40,813 bases of DNA, taken from IMG/VR virus record IMGVR_UViG_2563366797_000003; one strand, written 5' to 3'. The notes below the pieces were generated by a model, which did no database searches, had not been told where the DNA came from, and was given only the letters and a program-made list of their open reading frames with translations. How positions within the stretch are numbered: position 1 is the stretch's first letter; each line of letters begins with the position of its first letter. This DNA is from a virus. Its lineage: Duplodnaviria > Heunggongvirae > Uroviricota > Caudoviricetes. The position numbers were made by a program, and so were the translations under genes. Below, in pieces: positions 14,870 through 18,610 of this stretch.

Positions 14870-15652
14870 ATGAACCTTGAAAACACAGTGAAATACCACT
14901 TCGCTAAATCCACACTGATTAGCGATTCTCCGCGCGCTACCGCCTCCGATTCACTGACCGGTACCGACATAATGGCTGCCATGGGCATGACGCAGGAACG
15001 CGCCGCAATGGGTTACAGCGCCTTCCTCGGCAAGATGGGCATAAGCAATAACGACCGGGATCGGGCGATCGGTCTGCTGGCTGAGTACGCGATGACAAAA
15101 TGCGACAAGGTTGCCGCACTGCGTAAGCTCGGTGCCGCGGTTAAACCTCAGGTGATGCACCAGTTGGCCACCTTCGCTTTTGAGGACTATTCCCGCAGCG
15201 CTGCCAGCGTGAAGCAGTGCGATTGTTGTGACGGTCAGGGCTTCATTGAGGCTGACGTGTTTACCAATAAATTCCGTAAGCCAGAAGGGAAAATGACCGT
15301 GTCCGGGATGGTGAAGGTCAAAGAATCCATCAAAGTGCTATGCAAAAAGTGTAATGGCTCTGGTGTGGTTAGTGCTTCTTGCAGTGATTGCCATGGGCGC
15401 GGCAAGGCAGTGAACCAGGCTCTTACTGAGAAACAGGGCGTTCCTGTTCTGGCTGACTGTAAGCGCTGCGGAGGGCGTGGGTATGAACGACTTCCGTCGA
15501 CTGAAGCCTATGCTGCTGTATGCCAGATTACTGACGCCATTAGCCTGGACACCTGGAAAAAGTCTGTTAAGCCATTCTACGACCTGCTGATCACGAAATT
15601 TGATATCGAAGAGTCCTGGGCCGAAAAACAGCTTAAGCAGATAACGCGGTAA
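14870..15652 (+). CDS. Q-like late-gene antiterminator (phage 21/82 type)
   Basis: 260 aa; N-terminal SDSPRATASDSLTGTDIMAAMGM block and multiple CxxC zinc motifs; located directly upstream of the lysis cassette. Confidence 0.7.
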   Translation: MNLENTVKYHFAKSTLISDSPRATASDSLTGTDIMAAMGMTQERAAMGYSAFLGKMGISNNDRDRAIGLLAEYAMTKCDKVAALRKLGAAVKPQVMHQLATFAFEDYSRSAASVKQCDCCDGQGFIEADVFTNKFRKPEGKMTVSGMVKVKESIKVLCKKCNGSGVVSASCSDCHGRGKAVNQALTEKQGVPVLADCKRCGGRGYERLPSTEAYAAVCQITDAISLDTWKKSVKPFYDLLITKFDIEESWAEKQLKQITR

Positions 15653-15751
15653 CGCCTATAGCGATAGCCTATGATTTTGTCTTGGGCTATTTACTTTTCC
15701 CGAATCTGTGTTAATTTTGTCCCAACGATGGGTTAATGCCTTCGTTTCAAG

Positions 15752-15779
15752 CCCTGCGGATAACACCGTGGGGTTTTTG
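15752..15779 (+). terminator. Candidate tR'-like intrinsic terminator downstream of Q
   Basis: 8-bp stem (ccctgcgg / ccgtgggg, including two G-U pairs) with a 6-nt loop, followed by TTTTT at 15774-15778. Confidence 0.4.
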
Positions 15780-15855
15780 CGTTTCTGGAGACAGCAATAC
15801 CAAGGTTCGAGACATTCAGGTAAAATTGATGCATTACAGGATGTGAGGTTGGGGA

Positions 15856-16425
15856 ATGAATAATCTACCCGATGATTACTTTTTGGATGCGGACGACGAA
15901 CTCGTTGCTTTTCTGGAGAAGCAGGGCGAGGATTGTATACGCGAAATTCACCAGTCCAACGCACTAAACAAAGAAAATGGCCAGAAGTTATTGAGTATAC
16001 TCATTGCTGGCGTGGGCTCGTCATTTTTGTTATTAACGCAACGTACAGGTTTTGATTACCTCACCGCTGGAATGTCTGTTTTTTTAGTCTACTGGGCAAT
16101 GTGTGCGGCTTATCTTGTTCGCTGCGTCCTCGTTGTAAGGTCACGAGCTCTCGTGTCATCGACACCCTATGCGCTTTACCATGATGGCTATAAAGGGTTT
16201 ACTGAAGATGATTACACTGGTTTTGAGTCGAAAGGATTTTCAGGAAAGCGTTCAACATTGAACGTCTTGCGGCGCTACCGGCTTGCGGATTTAACCAGAA
16301 TGGCTGAAATGAGTAAAAAAGAGAATGCCAGAATAGGCCGAGAACTAGAAAGGGTAAGGATCGCTACAATCCTCACCCCTGTTTGTGCACTTGTAATCTC
16401 AGTACTTACTTACCTTTTTTTCTGA
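15856..16425 (+). CDS. Hypothetical multi-pass membrane protein; cargo (moron) gene between Q and the holin
   Basis: 189 aa with a GAGGTTGGGGA RBS; three hydrophobic segments (LLSILIAGVGSSFLLL, MSVFLVYWAMCAAYLVRCVLVV, ATILTPVCALVISVLTYLFF); flanked by terminator-like hairpins. Confidence 0.55.
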   Translation: MNNLPDDYFLDADDELVAFLEKQGEDCIREIHQSNALNKENGQKLLSILIAGVGSSFLLLTQRTGFDYLTAGMSVFLVYWAMCAAYLVRCVLVVRSRALVSSTPYALYHDGYKGFTEDDYTGFESKGFSGKRSTLNVLRRYRLADLTRMAEMSKKENARIGRELERVRIATILTPVCALVISVLTYLFF

Positions 16426-16555
16426 TGTTTTCAGCAGAATCGGCAACAAAGGTATAACCTGTCCTCAGATTTCTTTCGGCTGGCTGTGGAGCCGGTTTAG
16501 GCTGTGGTGCGGGTTGAGGCTTATTTTCTCCAGATGGTTTGTTTGATTCACTCAT
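16406..16555 (-). CDS. Candidate 49-aa Pro/Gln/Lys-rich small ORF, convergent with the membrane-protein gene
   Basis: Not in the track (under 60 aa). ATG at 16555 with GGAG 8 nt upstream; MSESNKPSGENKPQPAPQPKPAPQPAERNLRTGYTFVADSAENIRKKGK. Overlaps the 3' end of 15856..16425 by 20 nt. May be non-coding. Confidence 0.25.
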   Translation of the reverse strand: MSESNKPSGENKPQPAPQPKPAPQPAERNLRTGYTFVADSAENIRKKGK

Positions 16556-16646
16556 ATAATTCTCCATGTTTGATAGGGTTATTTTTGGCGATTTAACGAT
16601 ATCAAATACAGTGATTTGCTGCTAGAGCATGCACTTATCTATAACT

Positions 16647-16678
16647 CGCCCCGGCACCCGCTGGGGCTTTTTTATTTC
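16647..16678 (+). terminator. Intrinsic terminator upstream of the holin
   Basis: GC-rich hairpin gcccc-(loop)-ggggc at 16648-16668, followed by TTTTTTATTT. Confidence 0.6.
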
Positions 16679-16789
16679 CGGCTCACGGTAATCATCCGCT
16701 ACGTGCTTTGTTGATAAATCCAACCCGTGAAGCCTGAGCCTATTTCCCCTCATACCTGAGAGGACTCACAGCAATTAAGAGGGGGCTAA

Positions 16790-17176
16790 ATGTCCGATCC
16801 AATTTCCGGTACTGGGCTGGCTGGTGGTGCCCTGACGGGTGCCAGTGTTTATGGACTGCTGACCGGAACTGATTACGGCGTTGTATTTGGCGCATTTGCA
16901 GGGGCTGTATTCTACATAGCAACAGCAGCGGATCTGAGCGCATCGCGCCGACTGGCATATTTTATCGTGTCGTATATTGCCGGGATCCTTTGCTCTGGGT
17001 TGGTTGGCTCCAAGCTGGCAAGCTTGACCGGATACAGTGATAAACCTCTGGATGCCATTGGTGCCGTAATCGTATCTGCTTTAGCCGTTAAGATCCTGAC
17101 GTTCCTGAATAATCAGGATATCGGGTCGCTGGTGGCGCTCATAACGCGCCGGGGAGGTTCAGGTGGAGCTAAATGA
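16790..17176 (+). CDS. Holin-like membrane protein
   Basis: 128 aa with an AGAGGGGG RBS; Gly/Ala-rich transmembrane segments; first gene of the lysis cassette. Confidence 0.6.
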   Translation: MSDPISGTGLAGGALTGASVYGLLTGTDYGVVFGAFAGAVFYIATAADLSASRRLAYFIVSYIAGILCSGLVGSKLASLTGYSDKPLDAIGAVIVSALAVKILTFLNNQDIGSLVALITRRGGSGGAK

Positions 17177-17444
17177 CCCGACAGCAACTATAAACGCGCT
17201 GTTATGTGCTTGTGTTGTTATTACTCTGATGTTTTATCGTCGTGGTGATTCGCGGCATCGTCCTTGGGTTTCACGTTTAGCCTGGCTGATTACTGTTACA
17301 TACAGTGCTGTTCCGTTGGCCTATCTCTGTGGGATTTATCCCCATTCCTCATGGCCCATTATCGTGGCGAATACTATTTTTCTTTCCGTGCTGGTGGCCG
17401 TCAGAGGCAACGTTGCACGCCTGGTTGATCATCTGAGGCACTAA
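17163..17444 (+). CDS. Second holin / antiholin-like small membrane protein
   Basis: 93 aa; GTG start with a GGAGG RBS; two to three hydrophobic helices; sits between the holin and the endolysin. Confidence 0.5.
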   Translation: MELNDPTATINALLCACVVITLMFYRRGDSRHRPWVSRLAWLITVTYSAVPLAYLCGIYPHSSWPIIVANTIFLSVLVAVRGNVARLVDHLRH

Positions 17445-18058
17445 TGAACCAACAATTATTTCAAAAGGCGGCTGGTATCAGCGCCGGACTGGCTGTGCGC
17501 TGGTTTCAACCAGTAGATGCAGCGATGAAAGAATTCGGCATTACAGCACCCGCGGATCAGGCCATGTTCATCGCTCAGGTAGGTCATGAGTCTGGTGGCT
17601 TTAGCGCTGTAGTTGAAAATTTGAACTACACACCATCTGCGCTGGTGGCGACGTTCGGAAAGAGGATCACACAGCAGCAGGCTGATGCCCTTGGCAGAAC
17701 ATCCGGACATGCAGCTCGTCAGGATGCTATTGCCAATCTGGTGTATAGCAACCGCCTGGGTAACAAAGCGCCCGGCGACGGCTGGAAATATCGCGGCAGA
17801 GGGTTAATTCAAATCACTGGCCTCGACAATTATCGCACCTGCGGGGCTGCTCTGAAGTTAGATTTGGTGACTTCACCTGAACAACTGGAACAGGAACTAC
17901 AGGCTGCGCGCTCAGCTGCATGGTTCTACACCTCTAAAGGCTGCATGATCTACGGTGCCGATATTAATCGTGTTACTCGCATCATTAACGGCGGTCTGAA
18001 CGGTATTGAGGATCGTAAGGTCCGATACAACAAGGCGCGGGCGGCGCTGCTGGTATGA
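17444..18058 (+). CDS. Endolysin, glycoside hydrolase family 19 (chitinase-like lysozyme)
   Basis: 204 aa; GH19-type motifs (FIAQVGHESGGF, YRGRGLIQITGLDNY); start overlaps the upstream stop. Confidence 0.8.
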   Translation: MNQQLFQKAAGISAGLAVRWFQPVDAAMKEFGITAPADQAMFIAQVGHESGGFSAVVENLNYTPSALVATFGKRITQQQADALGRTSGHAARQDAIANLVYSNRLGNKAPGDGWKYRGRGLIQITGLDNYRTCGAALKLDLVTSPEQLEQELQAARSAAWFYTSKGCMIYGADINRVTRIINGGLNGIEDRKVRYNKARAALLV

Positions 18059-18447
18059 AGATGAGTTATTGGGCGCTTATTTTAACGTTTATTGCTTGTA
18101 TTGCTGGTGGTCTTGTCTGGTCAGCGAATCATTACCATGGAAAGTTTCTGGAGGAACAGCGGCGCGCTGACGATGCAGAACAGCGCGCTGATTCCTTTGA
18201 GACCATCACCGCGAATGTCCTGCGCACCGTAGCAATAACGAACATCATTCTGGAGACAAATCAATATGCCAGGCAGCAGATCGCACTGGAGTCACAGAGA
18301 ACCGAGAACGATATCAAGGCTGCTGTTGCGGATGATGATTGTGCTGTTCGTTTTGTGCCTTCTGGCGCAGTTAAGCGGCTGCACGACTACGCGAACGGTC
18401 TACGTTCCAGTTCCGGTGGTTCCGTTACCAGCCAACCTGACGGCTGA
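18055..18447 (+). CDS. Rz-like inner-membrane spanin
   Basis: 130 aa; N-terminal TM (YWALILTFIACIAGGLVW) followed by a coiled-coil-like region; overlaps the endolysin stop (ATGA). Confidence 0.65.
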   Translation: MKMSYWALILTFIACIAGGLVWSANHYHGKFLEEQRRADDAEQRADSFETITANVLRTVAITNIILETNQYARQQIALESQRTENDIKAAVADDDCAVRFVPSGAVKRLHDYANGLRSSSGGSVTSQPDG

Positions 18448-18610
18448 AACACCCCAGCCAGATTTACCCGATCCGTTTACGTGGGGAGCAAGCCTTAACC
18501 TGAATGTTGCGTTGTTGTCAGCGTTAGCACAGTGCAACAGGGATAAGGCTGATATCAGGACTTTCGAGAACAACAGGGCAGGACAAACAGATGGCACGAT
18601 TAAACGTTGA
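18332..18610 (+). CDS. Rz1-like outer-membrane lipoprotein spanin
   Basis: +1-frame ORF overlapping the 3' part of Rz; signal peptide plus lipobox MMIVLFVLCLLAQLSGC; Pro-rich mature region. Confidence 0.55.
   Translation: MMIVLFVLCLLAQLSGCTTTRTVYVPVPVVPLPANLTAETPQPDLPDPFTWGASLNLNVALLSALAQCNRDKADIRTFENNRAGQTDGTIKR

Follow-up and report, generated by a model that had tools for sequence, protein, structure and literature searches.

Lambdoid phages are known to carry morons at the junction between Q and S, where stx, nmpC or tRNA genes may lie, and HK97 gp15 and P22 SieA are examples of membrane exclusion proteins. Bacillus prophage regions hold type I toxin-antitoxin pairs whose convergent transcripts overlap at their 3′ ends, such as bsrG/SR4 and txpA/RatA. 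Also in Bacillus, SpoIISA, a protein with three transmembrane (TM) segments and a cytoplasmic domain, is paired with SpoIISB(C), a hydrophilic and disordered partner of about 50 amino acids (PMC3057836, PMC4926146). Prophages of Staphylococcus aureus encode Tha, a soluble HEPN nuclease activated by tail proteins, and its small partner Ith (PMC11087260). Here we describe a locus that resembles each of these in part. It lies in a 40,813-nucleotide viral record (Caudoviricetes; IMG/VR record IMGVR_UViG_2563366797_000003), the whole of which we call the window: a Rac/lambda-like prophage with integrase, RecET, a repressor region, replication genes, a nin region, Q, lysis genes and terminase. An earlier note on this DNA had placed a 189-residue open reading frame (ORF), a convergent 49-residue ORF and two plus-strand intrinsic terminators in the gap between Q and the holin gene, and all of these are present at the positions it gave. 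Our analysis shows that positions 15792-16665 are a self-contained, horizontally exchanged two-gene moron in the lambdoid late leader, between the Q-dependent terminator tR′ and the second terminator. We call the two genes m189 and s49. The slot and the moron principle are already known, and the late-leader part of the locus is ordinary. What is new is an uncharacterized cargo family with an obligate, deeply conserved small-protein partner that overlaps it in antisense, and with conserved promoter elements on both sides.

The boundaries of the cassette are seen most directly by comparison with Escherichia coli W619, which is 100% identical to the window through position 15791 (…GCGTTTCTGGA) and matches it again from about 16666 (TTTCCGGCTCACGG…) for some 80 nucleotides. 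Between these identical flanks W619 carries the same two genes, but their products are only 49% (m189) and 36% (s49) identical to those of the window. Other relatives fill the same place differently: phage HK225 has a reverse-oriented gene of 136 codons, phage mEp237 a gene for a 213-residue protein, and E. coli KL53 about 290 nucleotides without a gene. Past the conserved right flank the holins of these four differ as well. The flanks are shared by 238 E. coli genomes, of which only 6 carry the allele found in the window; E. coli LR-33 is 100% identical to the window throughout 15600-16800. A GC content as low as that of the cassette occurs in just 2.6% of equal-sized windows (Table 1). The unit thus shows presence, absence and replacement between conserved flanks, a deviant base composition and a terminator of its own. 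The proposal that the Q-to-lysis junction is a variable moron site is borne out: across E. coli genomes and phages these flanks enclose the cassette, a diverged allele of it, unrelated genes or no gene at all. The interval from Q and tR′ to the second terminator and holin is shown to be a recombination-delimited cargo site.

The second terminator marks the right edge of this site. Its hairpin (16648-16667) folds at -17.5 kcal/mol (z = -4.5), none of 200 shuffled sequences folds equally well, and it is a terminator on the plus strand only. Because every cargo type in the slot ends in a hairpin of its own followed by the common T run, we regard the second terminator as a constant functional feature of the right edge, and its position suggests that it shields the lysis genes from cargo transcription or leaky late transcription.

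Two further observations concern the contents of the slot. The 'empty' slot of KL53 (1620-1910 in locus L004) consists of unique non-coding sequence with a terminator hairpin of its own at the end, perhaps a leftover of former cargo or a gene for a small RNA. In some prophages, tRNA genes stand beside the cassette in the Q-holin slot (tRNA-Met and tRNA-Leu downstream, tRNA-Ser upstream; L089 5814-5965 and L060 394-479), much as tRNA genes precede stx in Stx phages. In the window, neither the Rfam nor the tRNA scan of this region gave a match.

The earlier note saw a single cargo gene with a side ORF. The cargo is confirmed, but the single-gene view is wrong: judged by its conservation, s49 is a genuine gene and a constant companion of m189. 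A convergent s49 ORF is present in essentially all of 101 intact loci drawn from genomes and IMG/VR (52 distinct sequences, overlaps of 20-35 nucleotides), and the few exceptions are sequence gaps or ORF-picking artefacts. In the window its ribosome-binding site is GGAG, 7 nucleotides ahead of the ATG, and a Shine-Dalgarno sequence precedes the gene in 31 of 32 representatives (loci below 90% identity to one another). Between loci with at least 80% nucleotide identity, single-nucleotide codon differences in s49 fall at positions 1, 2 and 3 in 61, 67 and 314 cases, with 297 synonymous against 145 non-synonymous, counts that are summed over pairs and do not represent independent events. These codon statistics, the deep conservation and the Shine-Dalgarno sequence led us to reject s49 as a chance antisense ORF.

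The s49 proteins begin with the pattern M-S/T-x-x-x-K-P, continue through a variable Pro/Gln/Lys linker to F/Y-x3-R-x2-V-G-D-S-A, and end in a Lys-rich tail. They thus combine a fast-evolving linker with a short conserved motif; the protein of the window has a net charge of +4 and is probably disordered. A profile search recovered 64 clusters, all of them stand-alone 'hypothetical' proteins of 41-93 residues and none a fusion. The association with m189 extends far beyond the Enterobacterales: relatives of m189 at 20-32% identity, in Acinetobacter-like, Burkholderia and Herbaspirillum prophages, also have a convergent, abutting or 3′-overlapping ORF of 41-53 codons, Pro-rich in every case except L028 (examples in Table 1). 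Because the ORF persists at this distance, we consider the pairing ancient and the defining feature of the unit. The gene is often missed by gene callers, for example in L014 and L015.

The larger partner, m189, is a three-helix membrane protein, as had been read from the letters; the AlphaFold2 (AF2) model and the hydropathy topology agree on this. The model (predicted local distance difference test score 82.6) has long helices at residues 14-62, 68-92 and 134-188 plus short ones, and the hydrophobic segments lie at about 44-62, 68-95 and 166-188. The chain begins with an acidic N-terminal helix, followed by a TM1-TM2 hairpin, a 70-residue basic region with an RRYRL motif and the third TM segment. 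The first 43 residues carry a net charge of -8, and the family averages 11 acidic against 3.5 basic residues there. From hydropathy and charge distribution, the probable orientation is N-terminus inside, with the bulk of the protein cytoplasmic and the C-terminus outside. The TM helices contain invariant Gly, Ser, Pro and polar residues: G52, G54, S55, S56 and F57 in TM1 (GxGSSF), W80 in TM2 and P175 in TM3. R140 and R142 of the RRYRL motif are invariant too.

A set of 5.8 billion proteins contains 115 homologues of m189, all from Enterobacterales and nearly all exactly 189 residues long. Essentially all are named 'hypothetical', apart from one 'membrane protein' and one evident mis-annotation, and RefSeq likewise labels both genes 'hypothetical protein' in a 100% identical E. 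coli locus. An exhaustive profile search of a 1.8-billion-protein library gave 102 clusters at 50% identity, mostly of 160-200 residues, and a second profile search widened the family to Burkholderia, Herbaspirillum, Cupriavidus and relatives.

The statement that m189 belongs to no recognizable family also holds. Scans of m189 and s49 against Pfam, NCBIfam and PADLOC (PADLOC-DB 2.0, E up to 1) returned no matches, nor did a PADLOC scan of a distant m189 homologue. A profile search of PDB sequences with the m189 family found nothing below E 0.2, and fold searches returned only generic long-helix (BAR-like) matches. Profile comparison with P22 SieA and SieB gave hhalign probabilities of 0.4% and 0.3%, with no match to Pfam SieB, and no Pfam or PHROG holin or antiholin model matched m189. 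We rejected membership in the 8xMP, PycTM, YLATT and SLATT group after scanning first 28 and then 10 distant members, the best scores being 11-13 bits against a cutoff of 30; hhalign of the m189 family profile with a SLATT protein gave a probability of 3%. Searches by accession, PHROG identifier or description of such a pair found no paper on the m189/s49 family.

Truncated or frameshifted copies of m189 occur in three of eight species-representative genomes, namely Yersinia pekkanenii (L010), Symbiopectobacterium (L011) and Leclercia (L012); in Leclercia m189 is frameshifted and s49 is intact. Such copies are compatible with selection against the membrane protein, though they are not proof of it.

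The first terminator had been counted as a part of the cargo, which would make the gene terminator-flanked. We can exclude this, because that terminator is the tR′ of a conserved late leader that is kept whatever cargo follows. The block at about 15685-15791 does not vary among phages HK225 and mEp237 and the E. coli strains KL53 and W619. Its spacing, TTTACT-N16-TAATTT-N6-AACGAT followed about 20 nucleotides later by a hairpin (15749-15776) and a T run, parallels the annotated late region of P22, which reads TTGACT-N17-TAAATT-N6-AACGAT; there transcription begins with the first A of AACGAT, and the region includes a qut site and, about 30 nucleotides downstream, the terminator t-late. The hairpin is a terminator on the plus strand only, and its equivalent in the HK225 record is labeled a terminator. 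The leader (15724-15790) has a folding energy of -23.9 kcal/mol. Positions 15690-15785, and not the cargo, therefore have the composition of a lambdoid late leader, with Q upstream, PR′, a -10-like pause element and a terminator within about 60 nucleotides. Given the shared layout with P22 and the HK225 annotation, we read them as PR′, a promoter-proximal pause element and tR′, functions that are assigned through homology.

Both cassette genes appear to have signals of their own. Exact TAAAAT stands at -41 to -34 from the m189 ATG in 19 of the 32 representatives and at -27 in a 20th, against a background of 1.9% of 60-nucleotide windows, and variant alleles preserve TAnnnT (for example TAAGAT or TAGTAT). 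On the opposite strand, TGnTAnnnT occurs near -49 of s49 in 28 of the 32, against a background of 3.5%. The 30-nucleotide block that contains it is the most conserved DNA of the cassette: it shows a single T/C difference between alleles whose proteins are about 50% identical, and it is the only part that cross-hybridizes among about 215 of 5426 complete E. coli genomes. One of these genomes was checked; there a Q-like gene and a lambda-type holin flank a diverged allele. Expression had been proposed to come either from Q read-through or from a promoter of the gene itself; the conserved -10-type elements are candidate promoter signals at both genes, and expression need not depend on Q alone. 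The ORF pair, the terminators and the two promoter-like motifs keep fixed positions in dozens of diverged loci, which is beyond chance.

The arrangement has two direct consequences for transcription. The s49 mRNA is complementary over its whole length to any m189 transcript that extends to the cassette terminator, and Q-modified transcription from PR′ must run in the sense direction through m189 and antisense through s49 and its promoter.

In most alleles, the window's (16610-16640) not among them, an inverted repeat CCAGA-N6-7-TCTGG lies between the cassette terminator and the s49 promoter, 20-45 nucleotides upstream of the extended -10 (L005-L009, L045, L056, L080, L090-L095 and others); one symmetric variant reads CCAGT…ACTGG. 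It may serve as an operator or form an RNA hairpin in the 3′ untranslated region of m189.

Table 1. Features of the Q-holin interval in the window, and small-protein analogues encoded by distant relatives.
Feature	Position	Strand	Sequence or size	Basis and remarks
Exchangeable two-gene cassette	15792-16665		874 bp; GC 44.4% versus 52.9% for the window	W619 comparison; alternative cargo
m189, inner-membrane protein gene	15856-16425	+	189 aa	ORF, homologues, AF2; PHROG 11870 'unknown function', E 5.6e-84
s49, basic Pro/Gln/Lys-rich protein gene	16406-16555	-	49 aa	convergent with m189, 20-nucleotide 3′ overlap; PHROG 14506
Candidate m189 -10 hexamer	15821-15826	+	TAAAAT	predicted start near 15833; conservation
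Conserved block upstream of s49	16577-16606	-	30 nucleotides	includes candidate extended -10
Candidate s49 extended -10	16604 to 16596	-	TGATATCGT	predicted start near 16589
Second intrinsic terminator, right edge of variable segment	16648-16678	+		terminator scan, folding
Right flank of slot, recombination anchor	16666-16745	+		conserved; near-identical in W619, KL53, HK225, mEp237
PR′ late promoter, -35	15690-15695	+	TTTACT	P22 layout; function by homology
PR′ late promoter, -10	15712-15717	+	TAATTT	P22 layout; function by homology
Start and sigma70 pause-type element	15724-15729	+	AACGAT	comparison with P22 P-late/qut; function by homology
tR′, Q-dependent terminator of the ~60-nucleotide late leader	15749-15785	+		terminator scan, folding, HK225 annotation
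Q-type late antiterminator gene	14870-15652	+	260 aa	Pfam Antiterm PF03589, E 2.2e-45; PHROG 127; outside cassette
First holin gene, Phage_holin_8	16790-17176	+	128 aa	Pfam E 1.4e-34; outside cassette
Distant s49 analogue, L023			MSNKKEKSPPPPPPPPPQKSG…	
Distant s49 analogue, L114			MSNQKPSQPKPQPTPSKP…VFVGDSVD…	
Distant s49 analogue, Herbaspirillum			MSDKPKIPQPEPVYRTPSRDG…	
Distant s49 analogue, Burkholderia			…NNKQPVPRPQPEPIYKGP…	

The genomic contexts of the pair bear on its role. Of 96 non-redundant loci, 73 have a recognizable Q gene no more than 3 kb upstream (median gap 225 nucleotides). These Q genes are of five seed types, three of them separate Pfam families, and downstream of the cassette are holins of at least six types, or endolysins. 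Elsewhere the pair leaves the lysis region. A Citrobacter-type subgroup has it after tail genes and a Rha antirepressor gene, and a Burkholderia member has it inside a baseplate and tail cluster. In the distant member L023 it closes a cI/S24 operon at the 3′ end; there the small gene points the same way as cI and the membrane gene is antisense. In Herbaspirillum (L122) it directly follows the portal gene of a P2-like prophage, a position that corresponds to the gpQ side of the gpA-gpQ hotspot, which in P2-like phages houses old, tin and many other defense systems (PMC9122126). The neighbors in L122 (6302-7651 and 9710-10501) are a SLATT gene, a ThsB-type TIR gene (PADLOC E 1e-43) and a further TIR-domain gene, and the SLATT and TIR genes look like a Thoeris-like pair in a P2-type hotspot. 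In four of the five contexts, namely the Q-holin slot, the P2 terminase-portal operon and two kinds of tail cluster, m189 is co-oriented with the late operons.

About 4% of complete E. coli genomes appear to carry an allele of some kind, and the family also occupies prophages of gamma- and beta-proteobacteria, whether lambdoid, P2-like or of another myovirus type. m189 is encoded by no more than five records of isolated phages and two labeled 'plasmid', and no chromosomal non-phage context was seen among the loci. It is a prophage accessory gene. The slot is variable across the relatives compared (W619, KL53, HK225 and mEp237).

As a separate observation, L023 carries a second S24-peptidase-like gene (709-1308, 199 residues) in the same operon, after the cI-type repressor gene and immediately before the small Pro-rich gene; it may encode a second LexA/CI-like autocleaving regulator.

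How does the pair compare with the systems named at the outset? With Tha/Ith it shares the combination of a prophage accessory gene and a small overlapping gene on the opposite strand with a constitutive-type promoter of its own, and an expected mutually exclusive transcription of the two genes that is tied to the lysogeny-lysis switch. The likeness is one of architecture only, that of a small antisense gene with its own promoter. m189 is a three-TM protein without a HEPN domain and without sequence relation to Tha. Moreover, m189 as the larger gene is co-oriented with the late operon rather than the cI operon, so that the predicted polarity of the switch is the opposite; its orientation does not fit a defense that is on in lysogeny and off at induction. 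SpoIISA/SpoIISB resembles the pair in protein design, as described above, but m189 has no Pfam match to the SpoIISA toxin family, the TM segments of SpoIISA are all N-terminal, and the SpoIIS genes form a co-directional operon whereas m189 and s49 converge.

Type I toxin-antitoxin pairs share the tail-to-tail genes, the 3′-complementary transcripts, the prophage location and the membrane-targeted partner. The antisense 3′ overlap is indeed present (20 nucleotides of coding sequence, with s49 upstream of the terminator), but type I toxins are under 60 residues and their antitoxin is a non-coding RNA, whereas m189 has 189 residues and s49 is a conserved protein. Lambdoid morons share the slot, the atypical GC content, the terminator, the presence/absence polymorphism and an inner-membrane product; they differ in that m189 has no homology to SieA, SieB or an annotated moron product and belongs to a two-gene convergent unit. 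SLATT, PycTM and 8xMP domains are likewise small helical membrane proteins with an N-terminal cytoplasmic helix and then a TM hairpin, but m189 matches these families far below threshold and is not a member. Unlike holins, finally, the pair is absent from most relatives and is also located far from lysis genes.

We tentatively favor a role in phage-versus-phage conflict, in which m189 would be a membrane effector of exclusion or abortive infection and s49 its antidote or regulator, although our confidence in it is limited. The points that count for such a module are the cassette character, the obligate pairing, the signals of its own, the lysis-independent contexts and the effector- and antidote-like features of the two proteins; among the functions listed in the earlier note (superinfection exclusion, abortive infection, lysis timing), the context in distant relatives favors phage conflict over lysis. 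The potentially harmful inner-membrane protein m189 would then act at the membrane, and s49 could oppose it both as a protein, which would probably bind the acidic cytoplasmic N-terminal helix of m189, and as an antisense transcript. Convergent genes, complementary transcripts and Q-driven late transcription antisense to s49 suggest mutual antagonism at the transcript level, which could take the form of RNA-polymerase collision, duplex RNA or both. The balance between the genes would track the phage life cycle, with s49 dominant in the quiescent prophage and m189 dominant once late transcription has begun. This prediction follows from the co-orientation of m189 with late operons in four contexts and of the small gene with cI in the fifth.

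Several points weigh against this proposal. Searches with PADLOC, Pfam, NCBIfam, hhalign and fold comparison found no homology to a known defense, toxin, Sie or holin family. The toxicity of m189, its binding to s49 and the transcription of the genes are hypotheses at this stage. A consensus scan of the region found no complete sigma70 promoter and no evident -35 boxes, so that the promoter elements of m189 and s49 are proposed from conservation only. The defense guilt-by-association comes from one distant locus type. Most seriously, the orientation of m189 with the late operons means that induction should raise the putative toxin and silence its antidote, the opposite of Tha/Ith, and a depolarizing effector would expose the phage to the risk that the holin is triggered prematurely. 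This weakness in polarity keeps two rival explanations alive, one in which m189 serves the lytic cycle and one in which the roles of the two proteins are reversed.

The first of these, which we regard as possible though unlikely, is that m189 is a lytic-cycle accessory made only after induction. It would act in lysis timing or in late superinfection exclusion, barring further DNA from entering a cell that is already making virions, and s49 and its antisense transcript would keep m189 silent in the lysogen. The orientation with late operons in four independent contexts is what this explanation predicts, as is the place of m189 as first late gene a short distance after Q in most loci, and the co-orientation of the small gene with the cI operon in L023 fits s49 on in lysogeny and m189 on in lysis. 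Yet most related phages lyse without the pair, the window is already equipped with two holins, an endolysin and spanins, and the Pfam scans revealed no holin or antiholin homology for m189. A late gene expressed purely by read-through would need neither a conserved -10 element nor a terminator behind it, and the cI-adjacent and P2-hotspot positions are typical of genes expressed in the lysogen.

In the second, s49 would be the lysogen-expressed effector, an analogue of Tha, and lytic m189 would sequester or neutralize it, as an analogue of Ith. L023 again provides the best support, as its small gene ends a cI operon, the site of lysogen-expressed exclusion genes, with the membrane gene antisense to it; the promoter block of s49 is the most conserved element of the cassette; late transcription would turn s49 off and m189 on; and the charges of the two proteins are complementary. 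We nevertheless give the reversed roles little credence. A largely disordered, fast-evolving peptide of 41-53 residues is an unlikely stand-alone effector, m189 is longer and more constrained and has the conserved intramembrane residues, and no loci with s49 only were seen apart from Leclercia, where m189 is frameshifted.

The pair might instead be a lysogenic-conversion factor unrelated to phages, providing envelope stress tolerance or a host-association trait in the manner of bor, lom or nmpC-type morons. A membrane protein with moron architecture in a classic moron slot would suit such a factor, as would the lack of homology to defense families. This seems improbable in view of the confinement of the pair to prophages, as judged by the phage, 'plasmid' and chromosomal records described above, and of its spread over very different hosts; a simple fitness factor does not usually come with so tight an antisense pairing, and the alleles are highly diverged between identical flanks. 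Least credible by far is that m189 is a core lysis or late-regulation component, for which only the position between Q and holin speaks, or that s49 is a chance ORF, and we reject both: the distribution (6 of 238 flank-sharing E. coli genomes, any allele in about 4%) and the non-lysis contexts refute the former, and the purifying selection on s49, its conserved Shine-Dalgarno sequence and promoter, and its persistence at 20% partner identity refute the latter.

Should the pair prove to be a conflict module, the prophage defenses of E. coli, Klebsiella, Salmonella, Yersinia, Proteus, Burkholderia and others would gain an uncharacterized membrane-acting system. Antisense pairing that ties an accessory function to the phage life cycle would then have a second, independent example, this one from Gram-negative lambdoid and P2-like phages. 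A bolder claim, about which we are more doubtful, is that m189/s49 represents a new, widespread prophage conflict family, in which a three-TM effector is neutralized by a proline-rich disordered protein from the opposite strand and the convergent overlap couples the pair to the lysogeny-lysis switch. If true, this would be a Gram-negative, membrane-acting counterpart of Tha/Ith with a mechanism of its own. Even with the function set aside, the cassette boundaries and promoter blocks can be used as constructs, and the slot anchors allow new accessory genes to be mined.

The genes around the slot show some features of their own. The Q protein of the window (Pfam Antiterm, PF03589) has a DnaJ-type CXXCXGXG zinc finger, yet its promoter region has the lambda/P22-type AACGAT start-site pause element. 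Past the slot, the Phage_holin_8 gene is followed by a 3-TM holin gene, then by the GH19 endolysin and the spanins. The two holin genes (16790-17444; 128-residue Phage_holin_8 and 93-residue Phage_holin_3_7) overlap by 14 nucleotides and might work as holin and antiholin or as two holins; a single, different holin of 92 residues is used by relatives that share this Q and this slot. The spanin genes (18055-18610) are overlapped rather than embedded: an Rz-like ORF of 130 codons (18055-18447) overlaps an Rz1/LysC-like ORF (18266-18610; 114 codons as the longest ORF) that extends 163 nucleotides beyond the Rz stop.

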